Source: a virus (Duplodnaviria > Heunggongvirae > Uroviricota > Caudoviricetes). From it: DNA of 42,539 nt. A program made the translations under genes and the position numbers. This document shows positions 4,064-40,430 of the stretch, one piece after another (the first letter of the stretch is position 1; each line of letters begins with the position of its first letter). The notes beneath the pieces are model-generated. The model ran no database searches, was not told where the DNA came from, and worked only from the letters and a program-made list of their open reading frames with translations. The stretch lies in IMG/VR virus record IMGVR_UViG_2897341779_000003. One strand, given 5' to 3'.

Positions 4064-4335
4064 GTATTCGTATTGAAATTGGCGAACGTTATGTCGTTAC
4101 CAGTGACAGCTTTCAGTTTATTCTCCACGAGAAAAAGAGAGCGGAAAGCGGTAAAAACGCCGGTCAGGAATGGCTGGCGGTGGTTGGTTATTACCCGAAA
4201 TTAAGCCAGCTCGTTTCCGGCCTGATGCATCACGATATTCTGACCGGAAGCGCAAAGTCTTTTGCTGATTTAAACGCGCAGGTTGAGCAACTCAGCAAGC
4301 GTTGTTCAGAGGCTTTTGGCTCATATGGCCGTTAA
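4060..4335 (+). CDS. early operon small protein (orf83 position), 91 aa
   Basis: ORF with RBS; overlaps the start of A. Confidence 0.5.
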   Translation: MSIRIEIGERYVVTSDSFQFILHEKKRAESGKNAGQEWLAVVGYYPKLSQLVSGLMHHDILTGSAKSFADLNAQVEQLSKRCSEAFGSYGR

Positions 4336-6616
4336 AGCCTCCGGGCGTTTTGTCCCTCCGTCAGCATTTACCGCAGGCACCGGTAAGACGTTTACCGGTG
4401 CTTATGCATGGAACGCGCCACGCGAGGCCGTCGGGCGCGAAAGACCCCTTACACGTGACGAGATGCGTCAGGTGCAAGGTGTTTTATCCACGATTAACCG
4501 CCTGCCTTACTTTTTGCGCTCGCTGTTTACTTCACGCTATGACTACATCCGGCGCAATAAAAGCCCGGTGCACGGGTTTTATTTCCTCACATCCACTTTT
4601 CAGCGTCGTTTATGGCCGCGCATTGAGCGTGTGAATCAGCGCCATGAAATGAACACCGACGCGTCGTTGCTGTTTCTGGCAGAGCGTGACCATTATGCGC
4701 GTCTGCCGGGGATGAATGATAAGGAGCTGAAAAAGTTTGCCGCCCGTATCTCATCGCAGCTTTTCATGATGTATGAGGAACTCTGCGATGCCTGGGTGGA
4801 TGCGCATGGCGAAAAAGAATCGCTGTTTACGGATGAGGCGCAGGCTCACCTCTATGGTCATGTTGCTGGCGCTGCACGTGCTTTCAATATTTCCCCGCTC
4901 TACTGGAAAAAATACCGTAAAGGACAGATGACCACGAGGCAGGCATATTCTGCCATTGCCCGCCTGTTTAACGATGAGTGGTGGATTAGTCAGCTTAAAG
5001 GCCAGCGTATGCGCTGGCATGAGGCGTTACTGATTGCTGTCGGGGAGGTCAATAAAGACCGTTCACCTTATGCCAGTAAACATGCCATTCGTGATGTGCG
5101 TGCACGCCGCCAGGCAAATCTGGAATTTCTTAAATCGTGTGACCTTGAAAACAGGGAAACCGGCGAACGCATCGACCTTATCAGTAAGGTGATGGGCAGT
5201 ATTTCTAATCCTGAAATTCGCCGGATGGAGCTGATGAACACCATTGCCGGTATTGAGCGTTACGCCGCCGCAGAGGGTGATGTGGGGATGTTTATCACGC
5301 TTACCGCGCCGTCAAAGTATCACCCGACACGTCAGGTCGGAAAAGGCGAAAGTAAAACCGTCCAGCTAAATCACGGCTGGAACGATGAGGCATTTAATCC
5401 AAAGGATGCGCAGCGTTATCTCTGCCATATCTGGAGCCTGATGCGCACGGCATTCAAGGATAATGATTTACAGGTCTACGGTTTGCGTGTCGTCGAGCCA
5501 CACCACGACGGAACGCCGCACTGGCATATGATGCTTTTTTGTAATCCACGCCAGCGTAACCAGATTATCGAAATCATGCGTCGCTATGCGCTCAAAGAGG
5601 ATGGCGACGAAAGAGGAGCCGCGCGAAACCGTTTTCAGGCAAAACATCTTAACCGGGGCGGTGCTGCGGGGTATATCGCAAAATACATCTCAAAAAACAT
5701 CGATGGCTATGCACTGGATGGTCAGCTCGATAATGATACCGGCAGGCCGCTGAAAGATACTGCTGCGGCTGTTACCGCATGGGCGTCAACGTGGCGAATT
5801 CCGCAATTTAAAACGGTTGGCCTGCCGACAATGGGGGCTTACCGTGAACTACGCAAATTGCCTCGCGGCGTCAGTATTGCTGATGAGTTTGACGAACGCG
5901 TCGAGGCTGCTCGCGCTGCCGCAGACAGTGGTGATTTTGCGTTGTATATCAGCGCGCAGGGTGGGGCAAATGTCCCGCGCGATTGTCAGACTGTCAGGGT
6001 TGCCCGTAGCCCGTCGGATGACGTTAACGAGTACGAGGAAGAAGTCGAGAGAGTGGTCGGCATTTACGCGCCGCATCTCGGCGCGCGTCATATTCATATC
6101 ACCAGAACGACGGACTGGCGCATTGTGCCGAAAGTTCCGGTCGTTGAGCCTTTGACTTTAAAAAGCGGCATCGCCGCGCCTCGGAGTCCTGTCAATAACT
6201 GTGGAAAGCTCACCGGTGGTGATACTTCGTTACCGGCTCCCACACCTTCTGAGCACGCCGCAGCAGTGCTTAATCTGGTTGATGACGGTGTTATTGAATG
6301 GAATGAACCGGAGGTCGTGAGGGCGCTCAGGGGCGCATTAAAATACGACCTGAGAACGCCAAACCGTCAGCAAAGAAACGGAAGCCCGTTAAAACCGCAT
6401 GAAATTGCACCATCTGCCAGACTGACCAGGTCTGAACGATTGCAAATCACCCGTATCCGCGTTGACCTTGCTCAGAACGGTATCATGCCGCAGCGATGGG
6501 AGCTTGAGGCGCTGGCGCGTGGAGCGACCGTAAATTATGACGGGAAAAAATTCACGTATCCGGTCGCTGATGGTTGGGGGGGATTCATAGGGCGCTTTGA
6601 TTTTTTCTGTGTTTGA
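4325..6616 (+). CDS. A: replication initiation protein A (rolling-circle nicking endonuclease), about 763 aa
   Basis: Large ORF at the A position; N-terminus MAVKASGRF from ATG 4325 (the ORF-track start 4283 is TTG); size matches P2 A (about 761 aa). Confidence 0.85.
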   Translation: MAVKASGRFVPPSAFTAGTGKTFTGAYAWNAPREAVGRERPLTRDEMRQVQGVLSTINRLPYFLRSLFTSRYDYIRRNKSPVHGFYFLTSTFQRRLWPRIERVNQRHEMNTDASLLFLAERDHYARLPGMNDKELKKFAARISSQLFMMYEELCDAWVDAHGEKESLFTDEAQAHLYGHVAGAARAFNISPLYWKKYRKGQMTTRQAYSAIARLFNDEWWISQLKGQRMRWHEALLIAVGEVNKDRSPYASKHAIRDVRARRQANLEFLKSCDLENRETGERIDLISKVMGSISNPEIRRMELMNTIAGIERYAAAEGDVGMFITLTAPSKYHPTRQVGKGESKTVQLNHGWNDEAFNPKDAQRYLCHIWSLMRTAFKDNDLQVYGLRVVEPHHDGTPHWHMMLFCNPRQRNQIIEIMRRYALKEDGDERGAARNRFQAKHLNRGGAAGYIAKYISKNIDGYALDGQLDNDTGRPLKDTAAAVTAWASTWRIPQFKTVGLPTMGAYRELRKLPRGVSIADEFDERVEAARAAADSGDFALYISAQGGANVPRDCQTVRVARSPSDDVNEYEEEVERVVGIYAPHLGARHIHITRTTDWRIVPKVPVVEPLTLKSGIAAPRSPVNNCGKLTGGDTSLPAPTPSEHAAAVLNLVDDGVIEWNEPEVVRALRGALKYDLRTPNRQQRNGSPLKPHEIAPSARLTRSERLQITRIRVDLAQNGIMPQRWELEALARGATVNYDGKKFTYPVADGWGGFIGRFDFFCV

Positions 6617-6839
6617 CATAGAATAGCCCCGTTACCGCTTGGGACATCTACTTTGCATTACTCTTGGTATTAGCTTTGTACAAAGGGTATAAAGGCTGCT
6701 ATTGGCAACAATAGTGCTGGCATGGAGATTGCCTCATGTTAAAGCTAGTGAATGTACGCCAGTACAACCGCTACCGCTTTGGGCGTTGGGAGACGGTGCG
6801 TAAGCACCGTCGTTCTTACCCAAAACGATAATATGCGGC

Positions 6840-7169
6840 CTAAGCGGTAACGTTTTCCTCTTCTAGTTCGTCCATCATTTTTAAATAATGCATTTCGTCA
6901 CCAGTAGCTGAAAATATTGTTCTCAATTGTTTTAGGTATTTATCTGGGTCTATGTCGCCCATATCAGTAATATTTACCGCATCAGAGTGAGAACCTCTGT
7001 TAATGTATCTGTAGAATGCTTTGAAATCACTGTTGCTATCGTCGCGTGCCAACTTTGTTAATTCATCTTGTAGAGCATCTGTTCTATGAACAAATGCAAA
7101 ATAATATTCTAGTATGTTTCTCATAATATTCGGTATTATGATTTTGTTTGCTTTGCTGCGTATTTTCAT
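6840..7169 (-). pseudogene. 3' fragment (108-109 codons) of the IS-interrupted RloC/PrrC-like gene; candidate nuclease domain
   Basis: Reading frame is continuous with the 9706-11643 ORF once the IS is removed; contains R-x3-E (RNILE) followed by a downstream His, reminiscent of the anticodon-nuclease Arg-Glu-His triad; AT-rich. Confidence 0.55.
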
Positions 7170-7349
7170 GAAAGGAGATCACTCAATAACTTCCATCGAG
7201 ATCGGGTAATAACATTTGAACAGATCGCTGAATAACATCGATGGAGATCACTTTTGACTCATTTTGTTATTCAGTGATCTCCATCAATGTTATTGGAACT
7301 TCACAGGTGTGTTGATCTGTATCTTTTGCCATTCCGGTAAAGGATACCT

Positions 7350-8891
7350 ATGCCAACAGTTCCAATTTCTATGAGAAAACTTAAAGAAATTCTTAGGCTT
7401 AAATACGGTGTTGGACTCAGCCATCGACAAATTGGTCGTAGTCTTGCAATCTCCCCTTCCGTTGTATCCAGATATGCTAATCGGGCGGCTCAACTTGGCA
7501 TAAAGCAGTGGCCCTTACCTACAGGATGGGATGATACAAAACTAAAACATGCGTTCCTTCAGACCCAGGTTAAGATGAAGAAGCACTCTCTGCCTGACTG
7601 GGCTACAGTACACCGGGAACTGCGTAATAAATGCGTGACGCTGCAGCTACTCTGGGAAGAATACTGTGAGCGTAATCCAGGCGGTTTTTACAGCTATAAC
7701 CATTACTGCCGGATGTACCGTGAATGGCTCAAAACCACTTCACCATCAATGCGTCAGGTACATAAAGCTGGCGAAAAACTTTTCGTTGATTACTGTGGAC
7801 CTACCGTTGGCGTTACCGACCCTGAGACCGGAGAAATAAGAACTGCTCAGGTCATCGTAGCTGTTCTCGGGGCATCAAGTTACACATGGGCAGAGGCCAC
7901 CTGGTCTCAGCAGCTTGAAGACTGGGTGATGAGTCATGTTCGCTGCTTCCAGTGGTTGGGTGGCGTTCCTGAACTTGTTGTTCCGGACAATCTGAAAAGC
8001 GCCACATCCAGGGCATGTAAGTATGATCCTGACGTTAACCCTACCTACCAGCAGATGCTTGAGCATTATAATGTCGCAGTTTTGCCTGCGCGGCCACGTA
8101 AACCGAAAGATAAAGCCAAAGCTGAAGTTGGCGTTCAGGTTGTTGAACGCTGGATCATGGCCCGAATCAGGCATGAGATCTTCTACAGCCTTGCATCGCT
8201 TAATCAGCGCATTCGGGAGTTGCTGGAAAGACTGAATAACAAAATAATGCAGAAGTTGGGTTATTCACGTGCAGAACTCTTCATCCAGCTTGATAAACCC
8301 GCACTGAAGCCTCTTCCTGAAGCCAGTTACAGTTACACCCTGGTGAAGAAAGTCAGAGTTCATGCCGATTACCACGTGGAAATCGACAAACATTACTACT
8401 CGGTTCCATGTTCGCTGTTAGGCCAGCAACTGGAAGCATGGATCTCCGGAGAACTGGTAAGACTCTTCAATCAGGGGCAGGAGGTTGCTGTGCACCCGCG
8501 CAAGCGTACTTATGGCTACAGTACCCGCAACGAGCACATGCCTGAAGCTCATCGACAGCATGCCACCTGGACGCCAGAGCGTCTTCTGGAATGGGCGGGG
8601 CACATAGGCAGTGAAACTCATAGTTATGTGCTTCATATACTGAACTCTCGTCCACATCCGGAACAAAGCTATCGCTTCTGCCTTGGACTCCTGAACCTTC
8701 ATAAAAAATACAGTAAAGCCAGACTTAATGCAGCATGTGCAAGAGCTCTGAAAACAAAGGTATGGCGTCTGTCAGGTATTAAATCGATCCTGGAAAAAGG
8801 TCTGGATAAACAACCTGTTCAGGATCCAAAACCAGATCTGTTATCCACGATGGAACACGAAAACGTACGCGGCAGTGAGTATTACCACTGA
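7350..8891 (+). CDS. istA: IS21-family transposase IstA (513 aa)
   Basis: N-terminal HTH, integrase-core-like middle region; followed by istB with a short gap. Confidence 0.85.
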   Translation: MPTVPISMRKLKEILRLKYGVGLSHRQIGRSLAISPSVVSRYANRAAQLGIKQWPLPTGWDDTKLKHAFLQTQVKMKKHSLPDWATVHRELRNKCVTLQLLWEEYCERNPGGFYSYNHYCRMYREWLKTTSPSMRQVHKAGEKLFVDYCGPTVGVTDPETGEIRTAQVIVAVLGASSYTWAEATWSQQLEDWVMSHVRCFQWLGGVPELVVPDNLKSATSRACKYDPDVNPTYQQMLEHYNVAVLPARPRKPKDKAKAEVGVQVVERWIMARIRHEIFYSLASLNQRIRELLERLNNKIMQKLGYSRAELFIQLDKPALKPLPEASYSYTLVKKVRVHADYHVEIDKHYYSVPCSLLGQQLEAWISGELVRLFNQGQEVAVHPRKRTYGYSTRNEHMPEAHRQHATWTPERLLEWAGHIGSETHSYVLHILNSRPHPEQSYRFCLGLLNLHKKYSKARLNAACARALKTKVWRLSGIKSILEKGLDKQPVQDPKPDLLSTMEHENVRGSEYYH

Positions 8892-8902
8892 TACGGGATC
8901 CA

Positions 8903-9652
8903 ATGATGAATCATCTTTACGAACAACTGACCGCACTTAAACTCACCGGCTTCCGTGATGCGCTTAAAAAGCAACTTGCTCAGCCGGGCACATACCAGGA
9001 GCTGGGCTTCGAAGAACGCCTGTCATTACTGACAGCAGAAGAACTAACCTGCCGTGAAAACAGGAAGGCAGAGCGTCTGATCAAACATGCACGGTTCAGA
9101 CTTAATGCTGAGTTATCAAAGCTGGATTATCGTAACAATAGAGGGCTGGACAGGGCCCTCATCCGTTCACTCAGTCAGGGAAACTGGTTAACCCTGAAAC
9201 AAAATATTTTACTGACCGGGGCCACCGGCAGCGGTAAAACGTTCCTGGCATGTGCACTTGGTCATAATGCCTGCCGACAGGGATACAAGGTCTACTATTA
9301 TCGCCTTAAAGCGCTGATGGAACAGTGCTATCAGGGGCATGCTGATGGAAGATACAGCAAACTTTTGACCAGGCTGAATAATAGCGATCTGCTGCTTCTG
9401 GATGACTGGGGGCTGGAACCTCTCTCATCAGAACAGCGTAGCGACCTGCTGGAAATAGTGGATCTGATGTACCAACGAGGCTCAATCATCGTAGTGAGCC
9501 AGTTGCCGGTGGAAAACTGGTACAAAATGATCGGAGACTCCACACATGCGGATGCCATCCTAGATCGACTGGTTCATGGCAGTATCAAGATCGAACTTAA
9601 AGGAGAATCAATGCGGAAAATACAATCACCGTTGACCGAAGGAGATCAGTGA
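8903..9652 (+). CDS. istB: IS21-family helper ATPase IstB (249 aa)
   Basis: Walker A LLTGATGSGKTF and Walker B LLLLDDWG; DnaC-like architecture typical of IstB. Confidence 0.85.
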   Translation: MMNHLYEQLTALKLTGFRDALKKQLAQPGTYQELGFEERLSLLTAEELTCRENRKAERLIKHARFRLNAELSKLDYRNNRGLDRALIRSLSQGNWLTLKQNILLTGATGSGKTFLACALGHNACRQGYKVYYYRLKALMEQCYQGHADGRYSKLLTRLNNSDLLLLDDWGLEPLSSEQRSDLLEIVDLMYQRGSIIVVSQLPVENWYKMIGDSTHADAILDRLVHGSIKIELKGESMRKIQSPLTEGDQ

Positions 9653-9705
9653 AGGTAATTTAAAAACGGTTCTGTGAAAGTGACACGAACCGATCTCCAT
9701 CGATG

Positions 9706-11643
9706 TTACTCACCGATCTCCTTCACGGTAATACGCACTTTGCCATCTTTTGCATCTTTTAATATTTGCCACAAAGATTGATATTCATTCTGTATGCTGT
9801 TTTTTTGTATTTCAGTAATTATACTAAAATCATTTTTCGTTACTCTACCTAGATAATAGTTTTTCTTAAATAGTTTGTCTTCTCTGCTTTTAGGAGATAG
9901 CTTAATAAGTTCATGAAAGAAATAAAGATTGTGAGTAAGGATTAATACCTTCTTTGTTAATTCATTTTTTATAATGTGGTGATGAATAATTGATGCGATG
10001 TCGTAGACATAGTTTTGCGATAGACTAGATATTGGATCGTCAATAACAATAAAAATATCCCTGCTATCGGTATCATTTTTATCGGTTTTACCTTTACAGC
10101 ACTCTAAAAAATAAAGAAACGTTATTAGTGTTTTTTCACCTTCGCTAAGAGATCTATAAACATTTTGGTTTTTTGTATGCCCTGGTCGAGATATAATGTA
10201 CATATCTTTTCTTTCTGCATGTTTTTCAATACAAAAACCAGAGATCCCTAGATTTTTTAAATGGGTGTTTATTGAGTCTATCGTAGAATCAATGTTAGAT
10301 ATTTTATCTCGCAATGCTTTTATTGTGAGATTATTTTCTTTTCCTTGTTGCTCAATATTATTTAATTCATCATGAACTTTCTTTTTGATATCAAAGAATT
10401 TTTCTTTGTGTTTGGATAAATTCTCTAAATCATCGCTGCAAAAAGCATGGAGAGCCCCCCAAACTTGTTTTCCGATTTTATTCTCATACTCTTTGAGTTT
10501 TTTAACCTTATCATTTATGTCTCTTATTTTCTTGTTAACAGCGCCTATGCTTTCCTGAACATGATTTTCTAGTTCTTTATCAATTTCTAATGTAACGCAT
10601 GTTGATGGATTGTTGATCTTATCAATAATGTTTATTAAATTTTTTTCTGCAATGTTTTGCAATATTTTAATATTGGAAATAATGTTCTCTTTATCTTTCT
10701 CATTGATTAGTGCACATGATGATATATTGTTTTGTATTTCGTTAAAATGATATATGGTATTTTTCTCATAAACTGACTTTATATCTGAGAGCTGTTTTAC
10801 TTTCTTTGAATAACTTTCGTCAAATATTGATTTAAGGGCATTTAAAAATTCGTGACTAATAGTTTTTTCCTGACAAAACGGACATGTAGAACCGTCTAAA
10901 TAATGTTCTTTACCTTTTTTTACCCAGTCAAGATTATGAAGTTTATTAATGGTTTCTGATAAATAGCTATTGCTTGTATCTATTATAGGTGTTGCTAATG
11001 TATTTACATCATCAATTGATGGGGTATATGGATGTAAAGGAGTTATTAATGCGGTTTCATTGTTTCTATTTTCTAATAGTATAGAGTATTCTTTTGCTAT
11101 ATCATTTAAATTAATAAAGGTGATTGGTGAGGATGATTTTATCATCTCAAAAAAAGGTCTTTTATAGCCAACTTTACCTTTCATTAAGGTTTTTAGTACA
11201 GAGTTTCTGATTGGTTCTGTTTTTTTCCAGATCGATTCGATGTATTCATTTTCTTTTTTTTCCATTTCTGCTTCTAATTTCAATAACACTCCTTTTTTTT
11301 GTCTATATTGCTCTGTGAGTTGCTGTTTAATTGCTTCTTTTTCAATTAATTGTTTTTCAATATCTGCATTTTCTTTACTTAATGTAAAAACACCTTTTTG
11401 TTCCTGTGCATTATAGAAGTTATCTTCAATAAATTTAGTGTTGTAAACAAGAGGTTTGTAATTGTCAAGAAGGGTACATTCACACTCGTTATAATCTGTG
11501 TGTGTAGAGTCGTAGAAATAATTTGAAATGGTAGATTTGCCACAACCATTTTGGCCGTATAGTATGTTTACTCTTTTTTCAAGATTCAGTATTGTGAAGG
11601 CGTCTTTCTTATAACTGGTAACATTTTTTAATCTAAGTTCCAT
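9706..11643 (-). pseudogene. 5' portion (about 639 native codons) of a Rad50/ABC-type ATPase with CxxC hook, RloC/PrrC-like candidate defence gene, truncated by the IS
   Basis: Walker A GQNGCGKST, coiled-coil-like stretches, CPFCQ, ABC-signature-like LSEGEK, Walker B IFIVIDDP, H-loop LILTHN; the last 6 codons and the stop derive from the IS end; about 30% GC. Confidence 0.6.
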
Positions 11644-11958: not shown

Positions 11959-11977
11959 GGCGAGGCGGGGAAAGCAC
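11959..11977. other. cos site (19-nt P2-type cohesive end sequence)
   Basis: GGCGAGGCGGGGAAAGCAC, located between the accessory slot and Q as in P2. Confidence 0.7.
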
Positions 11978-12146: not shown

Positions 12147-13181
12147 TCAGCCGTTGTCAGTGTCCAGTGAGTAGTTTTTAAAGCGGATGACCTCCTGACC
12201 GAGCCAGCCGTTTATTTCCCGAATCCTGTCCTGTAGCGGGATAAGTTCATTGCGGACAAAGACCTTTGCCACTTTCTCAATATCACCCAGAGACCCGACG
12301 TTTTCCGGCTTGCCGCCCATCAACTGAAAGGGGATGCGGTGCGCATCCAGCAGGTCAACGGCGCTGGCTTTTTTGATATTAAAAAAATCGTCCTTCGTCG
12401 CCACTTCACTGAGCGGGATAATTTTAATGCCGTCGGCTTTCCCCTGTGGGGCATAGAGAAACAGGTTTTTAAAGTTATTGCGGCCTTTCGACTTCACCAT
12501 GTTTTCGCGAAGCATTTCGATATCGTTGCGGTCCTGCACGGCATCGGTGACGTACATGATGTATCCGGCATGCGCGCCGTTTTCGTAATACTTGCGGCGG
12601 AACAGCGTGGCCGACTCATTCAGCCAGGCAGAGTTAAGGGCGCTGAGATATTCCGGCAGGCCGTACAGCTCCTGATTAATATCCGGCTCCAGCAGGTGAA
12701 ACACGGAACCGGGCGCGAAAGGTGTCGGCTCGTTGAAGGACGGCACCCACCAGTAAACATCCTCCTCCACGCCACGGCGGGTATATTTTGCCGGTGAGGT
12801 TTCCAGTCTGATGATCTTACCGGTGGTGCTGTAACGCTTTTCCAGAAACGCATTACCGAACACCAGAAAATCCAGCACAAAGCGGCTGAAATCCTGTTGC
12901 GAAAGCCACGGATGCGGGATAAATGTCGAGGCCAGAATATTGCGTTTAACGTAAATCGGTGAGCTGTGATGCACGGCAGCACGCAGGCTTTTCGCCAGAC
13001 CGGTAAAGCTGACCGGCGGCTCATACCATCTGCCGTTACTGATGCACTCGACGTAATCCAGAATGTCACGGCGGTCGAGTACCGGCACCGGCTCACCAAA
13101 GGTGAATGCCTCCATTTTCGGGGCGCTGGCGGTCATTTTTTTTGCCGCAGGTTGCGGTGTTTTCCCTTTTTTCTTGCTCAT
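12147..13181 (-). CDS. Q: portal protein (344 aa)
   Basis: 344 aa as in P2 gpQ; first gene after cos, co-oriented with P; ATGA overlap with the P stop. Confidence 0.9.
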   Translation of the reverse strand: MSKKKGKTPQPAAKKMTASAPKMEAFTFGEPVPVLDRRDILDYVECISNGRWYEPPVSFTGLAKSLRAAVHHSSPIYVKRNILASTFIPHPWLSQQDFSRFVLDFLVFGNAFLEKRYSTTGKIIRLETSPAKYTRRGVEEDVYWWVPSFNEPTPFAPGSVFHLLEPDINQELYGLPEYLSALNSAWLNESATLFRRKYYENGAHAGYIMYVTDAVQDRNDIEMLRENMVKSKGRNNFKNLFLYAPQGKADGIKIIPLSEVATKDDFFNIKKASAVDLLDAHRIPFQLMGGKPENVGSLGDIEKVAKVFVRNELIPLQDRIREINGWLGQEVIRFKNYSLDTDNG

Positions 13182-26552: not shown

Positions 26553-27080
26553 ATGCAGCATTTAAAAAATATTACTGCGGGTAATCCAAAAACTGTTGCC
26601 CAATATCAACTGACAAAAAATTTTGATGTTATCTGGTTATGGTCCGAAGAGGGAAAAAACTGGTATGAGGAAGTAAGTAATTTTCAGGAAGACACGATAA
26701 AGATTGTTTACGATGAGAATAATATAATTGTCGGCATCACCAGAGATGCTTCAACGCTCAACCCTGAAGGTTTTAGCGTTGTCGAGGTTCCTGATATTAC
26801 CGCCAACCGACGTGCTGATGACTCAGGTAAATGGATGTTTAAGGATGGTGCCGTGATTAAGCGGATTTATACGGCAGACGAACAGCTGCAACTGGCGGAA
26901 TTACAGAAGTCAGCTTTGCTTTCCGAAGCTGAAACTATCATTCAGCCACTGGAACGCTCTGTCAGACTGAATATGGCAACAGATGAGGAGCGTAGCCGAC
27001 TGGAAGCATGGGAACGCTACAGTGTTCTGGTCAGCCGTGTGGATCCTGCAAATCCTGAATGGCCGGAAATGCCGCAATAA
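26553..27080 (+). CDS. G: tail fibre assembly chaperone (175 aa)
   Basis: 175 aa immediately after H, as in P2. Confidence 0.8.
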
Positions 27081-27135
27081 GTTGTATGATCTCTGGAGTG
27101 AGCTAACGTATCTATAGCACAGAGTAAAGCCTAAT

Positions 27136-27146
27136 CTGACAGTCTG
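27136..27146. repeat. inverted copy (CTGACAGTCTG) of the 11-bp repeat core CAGACTGTCAG, sitting in the loop of a 10-bp inverted repeat (27115-27124 / 27147-27156)
   Basis: Exact reverse complement of the cores at 27259-27269 and 29569-29579. Confidence 0.6.
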
Positions 27147-27258
27147 CTCTGTGCTAGGAGCGGACTGACCTGCTTCCCGATGATTAATACACAGCTATGC
27201 TAGTAATGTCCGTAGATCGCTGTGTGTTGCATCCATCGGTTGAACTCACAGTCCAAAC

Positions 27259-27302
27259 CAGACTGTCAGCTTTGATTAGATTCTACCTACTCAACCTGTC
27301 AG
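27259..27302. repeat. left copy of an about 45-bp imperfect direct repeat bracketing the G-FI cargo
   Basis: Framework CAGACTGTCAG-c/g-TTTGAT...TGTCAG, with the two TGTCAG elements 32 bp apart in both copies. Confidence 0.65.
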
Positions 27303-27501
27303 ATAAGGTCTGAGCTAATACATCTAATATATGGCTTCGTGCAGGGGACGGCTATCGCGAACGTTAGGCCAGGTATCTGAATACGCACAGTTCACTTGGT
27401 TGTACTTCTTGCACTGATCTGCTATCCCGCACAGCTATTTATAGGTAATCTTCAGTGTATAATCTGCCAACTTATGGAAGCTTGTACAACAGGAGAAATA
27501 T

Positions 27502-28344
27502 ATGAAAAAAGAATTGTTTGGACGTTGCCCGTTTGATCTTGACGAAGATGTAAAAAAAATAGCCGCGATAAATAAATATATCCATGCAAAATTTGAGGAG
27601 CATAAAAATAAAATAGACAACCTAAAGGGTGTGGAACAAAAATTGATGGTCTTACAGTACTTTAATGTACTGAATGAACTTAGTAATCAGGCTATCTCTT
27701 CTTTGAATATAGGAGCCTTTTCAGCATCGGAAGTATTAGCTAGGGTTATAATAGAACAGGCTGCCAATCAATTTTATATAGCAATAGATGATGGCGAAAA
27801 TGCACAAGCATTACTCAAGGCTAGTAAGAAATTAGTTCATAGTAATGGAAAACGGTGGCTGGAGTGTTTAAAATCCAAAGGAATGACTAATCCAGCAGCA
27901 AATGAAAGGATTCGCATGGGAAAAGAACTAACTGATCTATTTAATAGATTGTGGCCAAATACACCTGAATATCCAGGAACCAGAAGACTTTTTGAATTAA
28001 TTGGCTGGGAAACACACTATCATGCCCATTACGTTCCCCTTTGTGATTCAATACATACATTCTCTGATGATATGGTAAATATAGTATCTCTATATAATGC
28101 AATCCAAAGTGATGAAAATACTGCTATCGAATTCATTCTTGCAGTTAAACAAGAAAATAAACGGCTGGCAATTTATAATTTTGTAATTGCTACGGCCCTT
28201 CGGTGTGAGGCCTTAGTAAATGTATTTAACTCTTTAGGTTATCAGGATATTATAACAGAAATGACACCAACAATAGATACAGTCAACCAGACTATAATTC
28301 GATATGATGATTTTGATCATTCCAGAATTGATGATTGTCAATAA
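27502..28344 (+). CDS. hypothetical protein (280 aa), AT-rich cargo gene; candidate phage-defence or superinfection-exclusion effector
   Basis: RBS AGGAG 7 nt before the ATG; candidate -10 TATAAT at 27458-27463; no confidently recognised domain; C-terminal R-x5-H (RYDDFDH). Confidence 0.6.
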   Translation: MKKELFGRCPFDLDEDVKKIAAINKYIHAKFEEHKNKIDNLKGVEQKLMVLQYFNVLNELSNQAISSLNIGAFSASEVLARVIIEQAANQFYIAIDDGENAQALLKASKKLVHSNGKRWLECLKSKGMTNPAANERIRMGKELTDLFNRLWPNTPEYPGTRRLFELIGWETHYHAHYVPLCDSIHTFSDDMVNIVSLYNAIQSDENTAIEFILAVKQENKRLAIYNFVIATALRCEALVNVFNSLGYQDIITEMTPTIDTVNQTIIRYDDFDHSRIDDCQ

Positions 28345-28450
28345 TTAATTGACAGAATACGTACATGCGCAACAACTAGTGATAGTTGACTTATTTTCGC
28401 TCTTGAGAGACAACCATACTCAAATCTCCCACATTGCAGGAGATTTGAAT

Positions 28451-29035
28451 ATGAAAACGTCACCGTGGAATAAAGACCGTACCATCGGTCAAAAAAGGCC
28501 ACTTCAGATATTTCATATCTGGGGGATCCGGATTAGACTTGAGTTGGAAGGTAAAACACGCGATCTAGCTCTGTTCAACATGGCTTTGGACACTAAGCTA
28601 CGGGGCTGTGATTTGGTCAAACTCAAAGTATCAGATGCTGCATATGGCAGTTCTGTCTCAAGCAGAGCAACGGTGTTGCAACAGAAAACCGGCAGCCCTG
28701 TCCAATTTGAGATAACCAAAGGGACAAGGGAAGCGGTTACTGCATTGATAAAGCTCGGCAACTGGCATAGTAAAGGCTTCCTGTTCCGCTCTCGGGTCGG
28801 AACTAACCACCATATATCAACCCGGCAATACAACCGAATTTTTCATGGGTGGGTAGAAAAGCTTGGTCTCGAAGATTCGCTGTACAGCACACATTCCATG
28901 AGAAGAACAAAACCTTACTTAATCTACAAGAAAACCAAGAGTCTCCGGGTGATCCAACTTCTGTTGGGCCATAAGAAACTGGAAAGCACAGTCCGTTATT
29001 TGGGCATTGAAGTCGATATAGAAGGTCTCTTTTAA
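28451..29035 (+). CDS. small tyrosine recombinase, catalytic domain only (about 194 aa), FimB/FimE-like
   Basis: Catalytic residues present in order: Arg (LRGCDL), Lys (QQKTG), His-x-x-Arg (HSMRRT), His (LLGHKK), Tyr (VRYLG); RBS AGGAG before ATG 28451; no N-terminal DNA-binding domain. Confidence 0.7.
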   Translation: MKTSPWNKDRTIGQKRPLQIFHIWGIRIRLELEGKTRDLALFNMALDTKLRGCDLVKLKVSDAAYGSSVSSRATVLQQKTGSPVQFEITKGTREAVTALIKLGNWHSKGFLFRSRVGTNHHISTRQYNRIFHGWVEKLGLEDSLYSTHSMRRTKPYLIYKKTKSLRVIQLLLGHKKLESTVRYLGIEVDIEGLF

Positions 29036-29057
29036 GTTATGGGGGCTGATTTTATAT

Positions 29058-29447
29058 TCAATAGCGTATGCTCATCGAAGAAATAAACTCATAAAATGTA
29101 AAGACAGCCAGCAAAAACATACAGATAAAGATAAGGGAAATAGCACACTTAACTAAGGGCTGAACCCCCCGAGGTGTTCCCCATGGTTTAGACATTTGGG
29201 TTATAACCCAAATAAATAAGGCCACAAAACAGCAAACACCAGCCAATCCGAGCAGAGATATTATGACAACTCCAAACAGATTTCCAACATCTAGTTTATC
29301 TGTTTTTGCAACTAGGGTTAACAAACCAGCAATAATAGTTGCAATCGATATTCCCGCAATGGTTGTGAGATCGGCGATAACAGCCAGTTTTTCTTTAGTA
29401 TTTCCTTGAGTAAAGACCTCTAAAATTGATTTCATGGAAATAACCAC
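29058..29447 (-). CDS. small integral membrane protein (129 aa, 3-4 predicted transmembrane helices)
   Basis: Strongly hydrophobic segments throughout; AT-rich; opposite strand to the surrounding late genes. Confidence 0.55.
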   Translation of the reverse strand: MVISMKSILEVFTQGNTKEKLAVIADLTTIAGISIATIIAGLLTLVAKTDKLDVGNLFGVVIISLLGLAGVCCFVALFIWVITQMSKPWGTPRGVQPLVKCAISLIFICMFLLAVFTFYEFISSMSIRY

Positions 29448-29568
29448 CTACTATCGATTATATTCAGGAGCTTTTTATCATAACGATATCAGATAGATAA
29501 GGACATTGTAATATTTTGGATGATTTAAACTTGCTTTTGTAACTCTAATGTCCACTTTTCGCTCAAAG

Positions 29569-29612
29569 CAGACTGTCAGGTTTGATAGCATTTGGGCTAT
29601 GTAAATTGTCAG
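29569..29612. repeat. right copy of the about 45-bp imperfect direct repeat bracketing the G-FI cargo
   Basis: CAGACTGTCAGGTTTGATAG...TTGTCAGG; same internal spacing as the left copy. Confidence 0.65.
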
Positions 29613-29642
29613 GCGGAAAATGAGTGAGTACAAATCAGGACA

Positions 29643-29669
29643 GGCGGGCGAATTGCCCGCCTTTTCTTT
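29643..29669 (+). terminator. rho-independent terminator separating the cargo from the FI late operon
   Basis: Hairpin GGCGGGC-GAATT-GCCCGCC followed by TTTTCTTT. Confidence 0.7.
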
Positions 29670-29765
29670 ATCTGTTGTTTCATCCACTGACCAGCCAGGT
29701 CAAATAGCGTCTTATGCTCTGCACAACAGAAAATAGTTGTACCCATTAACCACGGAGTTAAACGG

Positions 29766-30956
29766 ATGAGTGACTATCATCATGGCGTGCAGGTGCTGGA
29801 GATTAACGACGGCACCCGCGTCATTTCCACCGTATCCACTGCCATTGTCGGCATGGTCTGCACGGCCAGCGATGCGGATGCGGAAACCTTCCCCCTCAAT
29901 AAACCGGTGCTGATTACCAATGTGCAAAGCGCAATTGCAAAGGCCGGTAAAAAAGGCACGCTGGCGGCATCGTTGCAGGCCATCGCTGACCAGTCAAAAC
30001 CGGTCACCGTTGTCGTGCGCGTGGAAGACTGCACCGGTGATGACGAGGAAACGAAACTCGCGCAGACCGTTTCCAATATCATCGGCACCACCGACGAAAA
30101 CGGTCAGTACACCGGACTAAAAGCCCTGCTGGCGGCGGAGTCGGTAACCGGTGTTAAACCGCGTATTCTCGGTGTGCCGGGACTGGATACCAAAGAGGTG
30201 GCTGTTGCACTGGCATCCGTCTGTCAGAAGCTGCGCGCTTTCGGATATATCAGCGCATGGGGCTGTAAGACCATTTCCGAGGTGAAAGCCTACCGCCAGA
30301 ATTTCAGCCAGCGTGAGCTGATGGTCATCTGGCCGGATTTCCTCGCATGGGATACGGTCACCAGTACCACCGCTACCGCGTATGCCACCGCCCGTGCGCT
30401 GGGTCTGCGCGCTAAAATCGACCAGGAGCAGGGCTGGCATAAAACGCTGTCCAACGTCGGGGTAAACGGTGTTACCGGCATCAGCGCATCTGTATTCTGG
30501 GATTTGCAGGAGTCCGGCACCGATGCTGACCTGCTTAACGAGTCAGGCGTCACTACGCTGATTCGCCGCGACGGTTTCCGATTCTGGGGTAACCGTACCT
30601 GCTCTGATGACCCGCTGTTCCTCTTTGAAAACTACACCCGCACCGCGCAGGTACTGGCTGACACGATGGCTGAGGCGCACATGTGGGCGGTGGACAAGCC
30701 CATCACCGCAACGCTGATTCGCGACATCGTTGACGGCATCAATGCCAAATTCCGTGAGCTGAAAACAAACGGCTATATCGTGGATGCGACCTGCTGGTTC
30801 AGCGAAGAATCCAACGATGCGGAAACCCTCAAGGCCGGAAAACTGTATATCGACTACGACTATACACCGGTGCCTCCTCTTGAAAACCTGACCCTGCGCC
30901 AGCGTATTACCGATAAATACCTGGCAAATCTGGTCACCTCGGTTAACAGCAATTAA
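29766..30956 (+). CDS. FI: tail sheath protein (396 aa)
   Basis: 396 aa as in P2 gpFI. Confidence 0.9.
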   Translation: MSDYHHGVQVLEINDGTRVISTVSTAIVGMVCTASDADAETFPLNKPVLITNVQSAIAKAGKKGTLAASLQAIADQSKPVTVVVRVEDCTGDDEETKLAQTVSNIIGTTDENGQYTGLKALLAAESVTGVKPRILGVPGLDTKEVAVALASVCQKLRAFGYISAWGCKTISEVKAYRQNFSQRELMVIWPDFLAWDTVTSTTATAYATARALGLRAKIDQEQGWHKTLSNVGVNGVTGISASVFWDLQESGTDADLLNESGVTTLIRRDGFRFWGNRTCSDDPLFLFENYTRTAQVLADTMAEAHMWAVDKPITATLIRDIVDGINAKFRELKTNGYIVDATCWFSEESNDAETLKAGKLYIDYDYTPVPPLENLTLRQRITDKYLANLVTSVNSN

Positions 30957-36406: not shown

Positions 36407-36469
36407 TCGATGTGGTCAATGTGTGGACGTGACCAGAAATAAATCCTTTTATTTCATTGTGTTACGCGT

Positions 36470-36496
36470 AAAAAATAAGCCTGCGTAAGGGAGATT
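36470..36496. other. prophage attR core (27 bp; 2 substitutions relative to the attL copy)
   Basis: AAAAAATAAGCCTGCGTAAGGGAGATT; forms the terminator of the adjacent sRNA gene. Confidence 0.7.
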
Positions 36497-36640: not shown

Positions 36641-38002
36641 TCACTTACCGTGGGGGTTACGCGTGGTTTCCCCGGAGAAATTACGCATCAGCAGCGCGTA
36701 ATTTAGCTCAAGATCCTGCGGCACCGGGAGCCACACAGTATAACCATCGCCTGGTGCGACCGGCATCGCTTCACCTTTGGCGTTTTCCATATGCTCAAGG
36801 GTAAAGTTAATGTTGCCTTGCGGCGTCATCAGCTCAAGGCTGTCGCCAACGGAGAATTTATTTTTCACCGCTACCGCCGCGAGCTCCCCCTTGCGCTCAC
36901 CGGTAAACTCACCAACAAACTGCTGGCGGTCAGAAACCGAATAACCGTATTCGTAGTTCTGATAATCGTCGTGGGTATGACGACGCAGGAAACCTTCGGT
37001 ATAGCCACGATGCGCCAGACCTTCCAGCGTTTCCAGCAGGCTGGTATCGAACGGTTTGCCCGCAGCGGCGTCATCGATAGCTTTACGGTAAACCTGCGCG
37101 GTGCGTGCGCAATAGTAGAAAGATTTGGTACGGCCTTCGATTTTCAGCGAATGCACGCCCATTTTGGTCAGGCGTTCAACATGGGCGATGGCGCGCAGAT
37201 CTTTCGAGTTCATGATGTAAGTGCCGTGCTCATCTTCAAACGCGGTCATATACTCGCCCGGACGCTGGGCTTCTTCGATCATAAACACTTTGTCGGTTGG
37301 CGCGCCGATACCCAGCGTCGGCTCAACATTTTGCACCGGAATCGGCTCGTACTTGTGTACGATGTTGCCGACGTCATCTTCTTTCCCTTCCTGGACATTG
37401 TACTCCCAGCGGCAGGCGTTGGTGCAGGTGCCCTGGTTCGGGTCGCGCTTGTTGATATAGCCAGAGAGCAGGCAGCGACCGGAGTAGGCCATGCACAGCG
37501 CGCCGTGAACGAAGATTTCGATCTCCATATCCGGCACCTGATTGCGGATCTCTTCAATCTCTTCCAGTGACAGTTCGCGAGAGAGGATCACGCGGGTCAG
37601 ACCCATTTGCTGCCAGAATTTCACCGTCGCCCAGTTTACGGCGTTAGCCTGTACCGAGAGGTGGATTGGCATTTCCGGGAAGTGTTCACGCACCAGCATA
37701 ATCAGCCCTGGATCGGACATAATCAGCGCATCCGGCCCCATTTCCACCACCGGTTTCAGGTCACGGATAAAGGTTTTCAGCTTGGCGTTGTGCGGTGCAA
37801 TGTTGACCACGACATAAAACTTTTTCCCCAGCGCGTGGGCTTCATTGATGCCGAGCTGAAGATTTTCGTGGTTGAATTCGTTGTTGCGTACACGCAGGGA
37901 GTAACGCGGCTGGCCCGCATAAACAGCATCTGCGCCATAAGCGAAAGCGTAACGCATATTTTTCAGCGTTCCCGCCGGGGAAAGGAGTTCCGGTTTAAAC
38001 AT
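36641..38002 (-). CDS. yegQ: U32-family peptidase/hydroxylase, YegQ-like (453 aa)
   Basis: 453-aa ORF with RBS GAGAG; host-like GC content; U32 family and yegQ identity recalled from the N-terminus MFKPELLSPAGTLKNMRYAF and its position next to CyaR. Confidence 0.75.
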   Translation of the reverse strand: MFKPELLSPAGTLKNMRYAFAYGADAVYAGQPRYSLRVRNNEFNHENLQLGINEAHALGKKFYVVVNIAPHNAKLKTFIRDLKPVVEMGPDALIMSDPGLIMLVREHFPEMPIHLSVQANAVNWATVKFWQQMGLTRVILSRELSLEEIEEIRNQVPDMEIEIFVHGALCMAYSGRCLLSGYINKRDPNQGTCTNACRWEYNVQEGKEDDVGNIVHKYEPIPVQNVEPTLGIGAPTDKVFMIEEAQRPGEYMTAFEDEHGTYIMNSKDLRAIAHVERLTKMGVHSLKIEGRTKSFYYCARTAQVYRKAIDDAAAGKPFDTSLLETLEGLAHRGYTEGFLRRHTHDDYQNYEYGYSVSDRQQFVGEFTGERKGELAAVAVKNKFSVGDSLELMTPQGNINFTLEHMENAKGEAMPVAPGDGYTVWLPVPQDLELNYALLMRNFSGETTRNPHGK

Positions 38003-38489: not shown

Positions 38490-39704
38490 ATGACTGGAAA
38501 TATTCACCAGAATTATAATGCAAGGGATGTAATTAATGCCCCGGAAGTAAAAACAGCAATTTTGCAAAGAAGTCTGTTTCGCCAGGATAATGAGACCATC
38601 CAAAAATGGTTACTCAACCATTTTTATCGATGGCTAATTAGTGACTTTCCAATGGTGCAACAAATTAACTCGCTTGCAGAATATTCACTGTTTAATAAAA
38701 ATGATGATGTAATCCCGGAATGGCTGGTATCGAAGTTTAATACTGCCTCAGTATCAACTGCGACACTTTATTATATCGAAACCGATCATCAACAAATATT
38801 AACCAAAGAACGGGAGTTGGTGGAATTTCTTTCCAGGAAATGTGGTACCCGTCTGGAATCAAAACTACAGCGCATAACCTGCTACGTTGCGTTCAGAATG
38901 CGTGAAGAAGAGCATGAAAAGATGCTTCAACGACGCGAGAAAGGGTGGCAGCCGAGTGAACAAAATACTGTAAAGTCAATACTTGATGTGCCAGACGGAA
39001 AAATTGTTGAGTTTGATGCCAGTCATTCGAACCTTCGTCGTGAAATGGCTTATGAATCATGGCATATGCAACATTGCGTAGGCCAGTTTGATGATCGAAA
39101 AAATCTTACCGGTGGTTATGGTGAGTATTATGCAAATCAAATTGAGCAACATAAATTACGGTTATTCAGTTTGCGTGATAATAATAATATTCCTCATGTT
39201 ACTATTGCTCTCAATGTTGTTGGTGATTCACTTGAAATTGATCAAATAAAAGGTAAGCAAAATCGTCATCCAGTTAAAAAATATGCGGACGATGTTTTGT
39301 CTCTTTTGCAACTATTATCACCACAAGCAGTTCGACATAGTGATTGTGAAGGTATGGGTATTGTTTATGAAAATACACCTGAATATCAGGGGTGGAAATA
39401 TGTAACGGAAGTATACGAAACCAGTTTTTTACTAAGCGTACTACATAATAACTTTCATTTATTAGAACATTTTACAAATCCTTCAGTGGAGTTGCAGTGG
39501 TTACTGTTACACAGCGCACCTGATAAGTTACATTATCTTAATGCTATTGACCCTATAGTTGCTACTTCTGCGGAAATGTTATTCCCTGGCGCTGAGTGGC
39601 ATCCGCAATTTGCAGGTCAAAATATCAGCAACATTTCCTTTGAGATAGAGAGTTTGACATTACAGACATCTCATTACTTACCCCTGTCAGAGGTTGAAAA
39701 ATAA
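38490..39704 (+). CDS. hypothetical protein (404 aa), first gene of an AT-rich three-gene operon
   Basis: Long ORF with candidate sigma70 promoter (-35 TCAACA 38444-38449, -10 TATAAT 38467-38472); stop overlaps the next start (TAATG). Confidence 0.6.
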   Translation: MTGNIHQNYNARDVINAPEVKTAILQRSLFRQDNETIQKWLLNHFYRWLISDFPMVQQINSLAEYSLFNKNDDVIPEWLVSKFNTASVSTATLYYIETDHQQILTKERELVEFLSRKCGTRLESKLQRITCYVAFRMREEEHEKMLQRREKGWQPSEQNTVKSILDVPDGKIVEFDASHSNLRREMAYESWHMQHCVGQFDDRKNLTGGYGEYYANQIEQHKLRLFSLRDNNNIPHVTIALNVVGDSLEIDQIKGKQNRHPVKKYADDVLSLLQLLSPQAVRHSDCEGMGIVYENTPEYQGWKYVTEVYETSFLLSVLHNNFHLLEHFTNPSVELQWLLLHSAPDKLHYLNAIDPIVATSAEMLFPGAEWHPQFAGQNISNISFEIESLTLQTSHYLPLSEVEK

Positions 39705-40420
39705 TGAGTCTTATCATTGTTCTCCTGGTCGCAATATTTATTTTTATCTATAGATACAAAAAAAACAAACCACAAATCGATGCTTTTATTGCTAAAGAAA
39801 AAGAAAAGGATCTAATCAAGGACAAAAGACGAGCAACAAAGAGACGTAAGTGGGCATTAGCAATTGGTGATATAGTTGCTCGTCGTAATGGACTGTCAGT
39901 AAATGGCTTCACGTTAGATTTAAAGTTGACTGATGATAAGCGTCAACAACTTGCACTACAGGTTAAACAAGAGCTAGGAACAGAAACTTACCAAAGCAAC
40001 GAAGATTTCCGTCAACAAATTGGCGTTATATTACAGCGCTGGGCTACAGGGCTTGGTAATTCTCCACATGATTTTTACGAACAACTGGCAGCACAAGGCC
40101 AGGTTCTGGATGGGCTGGCGTTTGACTGTATGCGCACTGCTTTTTTAACTCGTTGCATCGCCGGTTTAGGCTGGTGCGATGAAAACCAGGCCTGGATAGT
40201 GTTATTACTGAATGCTCAAAGAGCACAAGATTGTTTCGCTTCATGGGAAGATTATGCCAGTGCTTATGTTCGCGCCCGACAAAAATGGTTAATGATATAC
40301 GATACCCCCGTCGCCACTGCGAACCGTGATTTAAAGGAAGTCACTGCATGGTTGAAAGATCCATCCAGTAACTGGAAAAAATTGCCGTGGAATGAATTTA
40401 AAATTTTTGAACCTAATTAA
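39704..40420 (+). CDS. hypothetical membrane-anchored protein (238 aa)
   Basis: N-terminal transmembrane helix (LIIVLLVAIFIFIY) followed by a basic linker; translationally coupled to the upstream gene; family (possibly DUF1266-like) is uncertain. Confidence 0.6.
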   Translation: MSLIIVLLVAIFIFIYRYKKNKPQIDAFIAKEKEKDLIKDKRRATKRRKWALAIGDIVARRNGLSVNGFTLDLKLTDDKRQQLALQVKQELGTETYQSNEDFRQQIGVILQRWATGLGNSPHDFYEQLAAQGQVLDGLAFDCMRTAFLTRCIAGLGWCDENQAWIVLLLNAQRAQDCFASWEDYASAYVRARQKWLMIYDTPVATANRDLKEVTAWLKDPSSNWKKLPWNEFKIFEPN

Positions 40421-40430
40421 AAGGATATCT

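Follow-up and report, generated by a model that had tools for sequence, protein, structure and literature searches.

How did a cargo gene of a P2-like prophage come to lie in two pieces on either side of a transposable element, and was its interruption an accident or a means of silencing phage-borne immunity? These questions are raised by positions 6840-11643 of the Caudoviricetes record IMGVR_UViG_2897341779_000003, a stretch of 42,539 nucleotides (nt) that is called the window throughout. A sequence-only reading of this locus had proposed that an insertion sequence (IS) of the IS21 family splits a single cargo gene in frame between the replication gene gpA and the cos site, and this proposal is borne out by our analysis. 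ISEc12, a member of the IS21 family, transposed into the single gpA-cos cargo gene in the lineage of Escherichia coli ATCC 11775, where insertion between codons 635 and 636 duplicated 6 base pairs (bp), CTTTGC, and left an open reading frame (ORF) for an ATPase with a zinc hook apart from an ORF carrying the catalytic triad of a predicted RloC-like anticodon nuclease. The event would have been a recent chance hit by a very active IS and not the work of a directed mechanism, and it would have disabled the gene; we consider it very likely that this account holds as a whole.

One gene in two pieces

Between the two fragments lie istA and istB, the genes of an IS21-family element, and a single Pfam model, AAA_13, continues over the ORFs on both sides of them. 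The larger ORF (9706-11643, minus strand, 645 amino acids) contains codons 1-635 of the rloC-like gene (9739..11643), its 5' part, which is predicted to encode a Rad50-like ATP-binding cassette (ABC) ATPase head, a coiled coil and a CPFC zinc hook, is identical to residues 1-635 of the E. coli APEC O1 protein, and matches AAA_13 (1.4e-93) at model positions 11-630. The smaller ORF (6840-7169, minus strand, 109 amino acids) contains the 3' part, codons 636-738 and the stop codon at 6840..7156, with the predicted anticodon-nuclease module (Arg646, Glu650, Ser689-His690), and matches model positions 632-713. As these model positions follow one another in successive ORFs, the fragments represent adjacent pieces of one gene. 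The larger ORF extends to 9706 through 32 nt of the element, which contribute two bases to codon 636 and supply the next nine codons and the stop, and not just the last six codons and the stop as had been read before; the IS end provides the smaller ORF with its ATG (7169-7167), codons 2-4 and the opening base of the fifth, and its start, which had been placed exactly at the left end of the element, lies 12 nt inside it.

The uninterrupted allele that the sequence-only reading had called for is present in E. coli APEC O1, which is identical across the junction. When 7157-9737 and one copy of CTTTGC are taken out of the window, a gene of 738 codons is restored in frame, with the insertion point between Lys635 and Ala636 (...LKDAKDGK|ANKIIIPNIMRN...). 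The repaired interval from gpA to the portal gene is identical to that of APEC O1 at 2943/2943 nt, and the repaired protein equals APEC O1 WP_000423308.1 at 738/738 amino acids. A 292-nt probe over the repaired junction matched at least 25 genomes with 100% identity and 42 genomes over at least 80% of its length, and with the whole gene as query the allele was found at a minimum of 99% identity in 44 of 5426 complete E. coli genomes, 42 of which lack the IS. The remaining two are the only records among these 44 with the IS-bearing allele and both represent the type strain: region 7100-9800, that is the IS and its flanks, finds a 100% full-length match in E. coli DSM 30083 = ATCC 11775 and in JCM 20135.

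These data also bear on the notion that the fragments are two genes in their own right, one for an ATPase and one for a small partner, and happen to flank an IS. RefSeq would seem to favour it, as both fragments (WP_029130957.1, WP_077759295.1) are listed by RefSeq/PGAP as ordinary protein-coding 'AAA family ATPase' coding sequences (CDSs) and not as a pseudogene; vgrG, psiA and iroN genes split by ISEc12 in other genomes are flagged as pseudogenes by the same source. However, one Pfam model spans both fragments without a gap, the small ORF takes its start codon, and the large ORF its stop codon, from the IS, and the same DNA without the IS is found in 42 E. coli genomes, in most of which it is annotated as one CDS of 2217 bp. 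Contiguity in homologues likewise speaks for a split gene: a search with the repaired protein returned 118 relatives, most of which are single proteins, including all those that cover at least 95% of the query (about 700-760 amino acids), and the shorter entries are truncated or partial. Without exception, the homologues with identities of 22-100% consist of one protein of about 720-745 amino acids. Two separate genes are thus scarcely credible here.

In four of the 42 IS-free alleles (H80, H81, H91 and H105) the annotation gives two 'AAA family ATPase' CDSs each. With lengths of 2216, 2218, 2224 and 2216 bp compared with 2217 bp, these alleles differ by -1, +1, +7 and -1 nt and carry small frameshifts. 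These alleles may be independent inactivations, or they may reflect homopolymer sequencing or assembly errors in a gene of 30% guanine plus cytosine (GC) content that is rich in A7-A9 runs.

The ends of ISEc12 and the target-site duplication

The inserted element is a complete copy of ISEc12 of 2581 bp (7157..9737, plus strand) with TG...CA termini, a trait of the IS21 family, imperfect terminal inverted repeats and internal GGAGATC-type end repeats. Its outermost bases are TGCGTATT at 7157 and AATACGCA ending at 9737. According to the repeat finder, the terminal inverted repeats read TGCGTATTTTCATGAAAGGAGATC on the left and, as reverse complement, TGCGTATTACCGTGAAGGAGATC on the right, where the terminus as written on the given strand is GATCTCCTTCACGGTAATACGCA; the GGAGATC-type motifs are sub-terminal and are repeated near both ends. 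The istA gene (7350..8891, plus strand) encodes a DDE transposase of 513 amino acids (WP_001298859.1; NCBIfam transpos_IS21, 1.3e-92; Pfam rve and Mu-transpos_C_2), and istB (8903..9652, plus strand; start at 8906 in RefSeq) is a 249-amino-acid ORF for the IS21 helper AAA+ ATPase (WP_001016257.1; Pfam IstB_IS21, 2.2e-67; NCBIfam IS21_help_AAA, 1.8e-80). Over the full 2581 bp the window copy shows 99.7-100% nucleotide identity to copies annotated as 'IS21-like element ISEc12 family', and it shares with them the istA and istB proteins, the TG...CA termini and a target duplication within the 5-8 bp range; the only difference is the insertion site.

The exact ends of the element matter for the reconstruction of the gene. 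It had been assumed that the IS occupies 7169-9725 (or 7169-9721), that TTCA was duplicated on insertion, and that the gene originally comprised about 748 codons, with a junction ...GKVRIT-V-KIRSKAN.... TTCA does indeed stand at 7165-7168 and 9722-9725, and excision of 7169-9725 does leave an open frame of 748 codons. Yet the inverted repeat runs 12 nt past 7169 and 9725, out to the true ends at 7157 and 9737, and these 12 nt are present at both ends of five other ISEc12 copies (L003-L007) at unrelated sites, each of which has the same terminal bases and a length of 2581 bp. TTCA therefore lies inside the IS ends and is no target duplication. The frame of the earlier join stayed open because 12 nt of IS at each end and one 6-nt copy of the duplication, 30 nt in total, had been kept; these 30 nt are absent from the intact allele, and the ten spurious codons to which they give rise (VRITV-KIRSK) are found in none of 24 aligned homologues. 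With the APEC O1 allele fixing the true gene at 738 codons, the former boundaries have next to nothing left in their favour.

The actual target-site duplication is the 6-bp sequence CTTTGC, which was read directly from the sequence at 7151..7156 on the left and at 9738..9743 on the right and occurs as a single copy in the intact allele. The copy at 7151-7156 repeats the stretch of the gene that runs from within codon 634 through codon 635 to the first base of 636. Duplications of 4-8 bp are described for the IS21 family, and the 6 bp of the window copy fall inside this range. For the five compared copies, which are inserted in vgrG, in plasmid psiA, in iroN, beside a P2 cox gene and beside pptA, the duplications are ACCGC (5 bp), CACTGTC (7 bp), GCTGCGA (7 bp), CTTTTA (6 bp) and GGCTTTGA (8 bp), so that the length varies over six copies, window copy included (5, 6, 6, 7, 7 and 8 bp). 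No common target sequence was seen among these six sites.

Matches running 1-20 nt past the IS had suggested a target-site preference of ISEc12. These matches were the top rows of about 5600 ISEc12 places ranked by coverage; we take the extensions as chance and reject the preference, as the five flanks are without consensus. The copy adjoining the P2-type cox gene is located in E. coli MS 124-1 (L006, NZ_CP146654.1 2951552-2954304), from which it follows that the IS has entered P2-like prophages more than once.

The intact gene encodes a predicted RloC-like anticodon nuclease

The sequence-only reading had described the interrupted gene as defence-type, and its motifs agree with this description: we assign the predicted product to the RloC-like anticodon nucleases, with an N-terminal Rad50-like ABC ATPase, a coiled-coil insert that bears a CxxC zinc hook, and, at the C-terminus, a nuclease module. 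The PADLOC model of PDC-S06, a candidate system of one gene, matches residues 2-730 of the repaired protein at model positions 4-724 of 727 (1.3e-254), the PADLOC model of PrrC matches residues 490-730 (9.7e-13), and several relatives are named 'wobble nucleotide-excising tRNase', i.e. RloC, in their source records. PDC-S06 is a computational candidate, for which no experimental validation was found in the titles and abstracts of papers that mention it; no experimental paper on phage protection by the repaired protein was found in the literature search, no NCBIfam model matched it, and the PDB sequence search returned nothing at E ≤ 0.01.

ATPase motifs are found in the repaired protein at residues 30-37 (GQNGCGKS), 499-503 (LSEGE), 534-537 (IDDP) and 570-571 (TH). 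In an alignment of 24 homologues, whose identity ranges from 22 to 100%, the Walker A motif (G30...K36), C254-P-F-C257-Q, L499-S-E-G-E503, D535-D-P537, T570-H571, R646, S689-H690 and H723 are invariant, and Glu650 is kept in at least 90%. The published RloC motif is Arg-X3-Glu-X36-52-His, often with a Ser before the His (PMC2610378), and the spacing R646-x3-E650-x39-S689-H690 fits this signature. A CxxC motif within a helical insert forms the zinc hook of RloC (PMC2610378, PMC3458546). In an AlphaFold2 model of the repaired protein (mean predicted local distance difference test score, pLDDT, 82) long helices at 90-141 and 264-446 flank CPFC, the ABC head is split, and the C-terminal module is helical. 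The closest folds in the PDB are Rad50, SMC heads and Lamassu LmuB.

RloC of Geobacillus kaustophilus and Acinetobacter baylyi (COG4694/Pfam AAA_13) has the architecture of ATPase, zinc hook and triad in common with the window gene (PMC2610378, PMC3458546). The likeness is one of motifs, as identity falls to just 22-35% for the most remote of the homologues in the alignment, some of them named tRNase. Like RloC, the window gene stands alone, outside any type I restriction-modification (R-M) locus; it differs in being carried by a P2 prophage, as the only cargo gene of a hotspot. The trigger of RloC is DNA breaks. The nuclease module is also homologous to that of PrrC, the tRNA-Lys anticodon nuclease of E. 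coli CT196, and follows the same triad logic. PrrC, however, has about 396 amino acids, lacks a coiled coil and a zinc hook, and is always found inside a type Ic R-M locus (hsd/prr) that silences it. PrrC was therefore rejected as the identity of the window gene, which has 738 codons, a coiled coil and a zinc hook, lies next to gpA and cos/portal, and has no hsd genes around it.

Consequences of the insertion

In the AlphaFold2 model the insertion point falls in a loop between helix 620-632 and helix 638-655, the latter of which carries Arg646 and Glu650. The 645-amino-acid ORF hence comprises the ATPase, the zinc hook and 10 IS-encoded residues, and the 109-amino-acid ORF holds the full Arg-Glu-His triad. 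The nuclease domain of PrrC is inert on its own, as are NTPase and nuclease when co-expressed in trans (PMC3025547). Because the triad is separated from the ATPase and PrrC needs both in cis, the split gene is very probably inactive, whether as a defence or as a toxin. An added ground comes from expression signals. A promoter scan of 6600-7400 gave no promoter-like site for the C-terminal ORF and none directed outward from the left end of the IS, and the bases ahead of the IS-derived ATG of this ORF, CTCCTTTC, do not form a Shine-Dalgarno sequence.

It is also conceivable that the split products keep or gain a function, either as a dominant-negative ATPase/zinc-hook fragment that acts against another RloC or PrrC, or as a switch that is reversed by precise excision of the IS. 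PrrC mutants in the NTPase domain are dominant negative (PMC3025547), both fragments are still open, and upstream of the N-terminal ORF there is a promoter-like site (11869-11840, minus strand). Against this, the C-terminal ORF has neither a promoter-like site nor a Shine-Dalgarno sequence, and no second RloC or PrrC gene turned up in the window, although no search was aimed at one. Nor are IS21-family elements known to excise precisely as a programmed behaviour, which counts against a switch. A retained or new function of the fragments is thus very unlikely.

That the gene is very probably dead matters in practice. RefSeq shows this P2-borne, RloC-like candidate defence gene of the E. coli type strain as two ordinary proteins, and censuses of defence systems as well as phage host-range work on ATCC 11775 should treat it as a pseudogene. 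At the same time, intact alleles such as that of APEC O1 make a repaired and an interrupted version easy to build as a pair for a first functional test of PDC-S06/RloC-like cargo.

Chance transposition or selected loss

With respect to the cause of the interruption, we favour, as the simplest explanation, recent chance transposition into a gene rich in AT, since ISEc12 is abundant in unrelated targets, the insertion is confined to one lineage, and its flanks are identical to intact alleles. ISEc12 was detected in 1957 of 5426 complete E. coli genomes (2253 records at a minimum of 99% identity), with a median of two and a maximum of 17 places per genome, and the genome of the window strain carries three further copies. 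Nothing here speaks for silencing of phage-borne immunity by the host, or by a competing element, by way of the IS: the element is widespread and strikes unrelated targets, and the insertion occurs in one lineage only.

A more general form of this idea is that the insertion was selected, be it because the nuclease carries an autoimmunity cost or because its loss lifts a barrier against another phage or satellite. When expressed in E. coli, RloC is toxic and limits itself (PMC2610378), the frameshifting length changes in 4 of the 42 IS-free alleles could mean recurrent loss, and defence pseudogenes are otherwise rare in P2 hotspots, where they make up about 2% of pseudogenes (PMC13586616). However, the IS-bearing allele is restricted to a single lineage, ISEc12 occurs in many unrelated targets without any sign of preference for the rloC-like gene, and the four frameshifts may stem from sequencing errors at homopolymers, given that the gene has 30% GC and many A-runs. 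In addition, IS movement is common in culture-collection strains, and the type strain has long been kept in collections, which counts against a selected insertion. We therefore regard selection for the insertion as unlikely. If this possibility is taken together with that of a dominant-negative product, the interruption would be non-neutral, with the IS and perhaps the four frameshifts as recurrent selected shut-offs or with the ATPase/zinc-hook fragment interfering in the cell; this broader proposition seems to us decidedly improbable. Were it true, the locus would provide a rare natural case of decay of a defence gene within a P2 hotspot.

Several points nevertheless weigh against the account of a recent chance insertion that disabled a nuclease gene. 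The anticodon-nuclease activity and the anti-phage role are predictions drawn from motifs and genomic position. The requirement for both domains in cis is known from PrrC in yeast and not from an RloC. The term 'recent' draws on flanks that are identical to intact alleles and on the restriction to a single lineage, and selection for the loss of a potentially toxic nuclease may have played a part.

Taken as a chance insertion, the case is an ordinary IS knockout composed of known parts, namely ISEc12, an RloC-like/PDC-S06 gene and the gpA-cos hotspot of P2, and it introduces no new mechanism or kind of element. Few recognisable defence pseudogenes are reported from P2 hotspots, where they account for about 2% of the pseudogenes, and transposable elements are infrequent in phage genomes (PMC13586616). 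Given this rarity, the IS-split cargo gene is an uncommon state of a known locus and not something new in kind. According to a 2026 survey, the cargo of P2 hotspots turns over mostly by replacement without pseudogenisation, and the window documents one IS-inactivated defence gene, predicted as such, in a state that is reported to be rare.

The cargo slot and the prophage

The prophage is P2-like and lies beside yegR/yegS (RefSeq annotation). Its gene order is integrase, C-type repressor, cox, small genes, gpA, 'AAA family ATPase', istA, istB, 'AAA family ATPase', portal, terminase, scaffold and capsid. The slot of the split gene is bordered on the left by the P2 gpA replication endonuclease gene (4325..6616, plus strand; WP_000268633.1, the same RefSeq accession that borders the intact allele of APEC O1) and on the right by the P2 gpQ portal protein gene (12147..13181, minus strand; RefSeq WP_000038157.1). 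On the far side of the slot there is a P2-type cos sequence, GGCGAGGCGGGGAAAGCAC (11959..11977, plus strand), an exact 19/19 match with 0 expected by chance; we take this 19-mer at 11959-11977 to be the P2 cohesive end. This cos sequence places the split gene in the gpA-cos slot, known in P2 as the old/tin locus. The window cargo shares with this locus of P2-like prophages the slot between A and cos/portal and is a single gene of low GC content; it differs by its interruption by the IS. The GC content of the cargo is 29.7% compared with 53% in the prophage backbone.

The gpA-cos slot of P2-like prophages is a known hotspot of anti-phage cargo (Rousset et al. 2022, PMC9122126; PMC13586616), and the main text of Rousset et al. 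2022 (PMC9122126) makes no mention of RloC or AAA_13. An rloC-like gene of 735 amino acids with 58% identity (P0034) is located in the same portal-X-gpA slot of another P2-like prophage (L008 5001-7208, a Logan contig of SRR2239632), and a homologue with 65% identity is found in Enterobacter phage ENT4. The rloC-like gene class is a recurrent P2-type cargo, with diverged versions in the same hotspot.

The prophage measures about 35.9 kilobases (kb), or about 33.3 kb once the IS is subtracted. This increase of the genome by about 8% might, as a speculation, affect packaging into a head of P2 size. Putative attL and attR sites are indicated by imperfect direct repeats at about 600-672 and 36407-36495, with exact cores of 15 nt and 13 nt and about 75 nt that can be aligned.

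A second variable locus of P2 extends from 27100 to 29700, between a gene for tail-fibre assembly (26553-27080) and one for the sheath (29766-30956), with a GC content of 40-43%. It encodes a DUF5677 protein (27502-28344, plus strand), a Phage_integrase-family protein of 228 amino acids (28349-29035, plus strand) and a 129-amino-acid ORF (29058-29447, minus strand). PADLOC gave no match for the cargo of this locus (27.1-29.7 kb), which is possibly uncharacterised hotspot cargo. Beyond attR and a gene for a U32 peptidase (36641-38002, minus strand), PADLOC likewise gave no match in a block of low GC content (36-43%) at 38490-42539, whose proteins include a PcfJ-like protein (404 amino acids), a DUF1266 protein (238 amino acids) and a DUF4034 protein of at least 715 amino acids that runs off the window.

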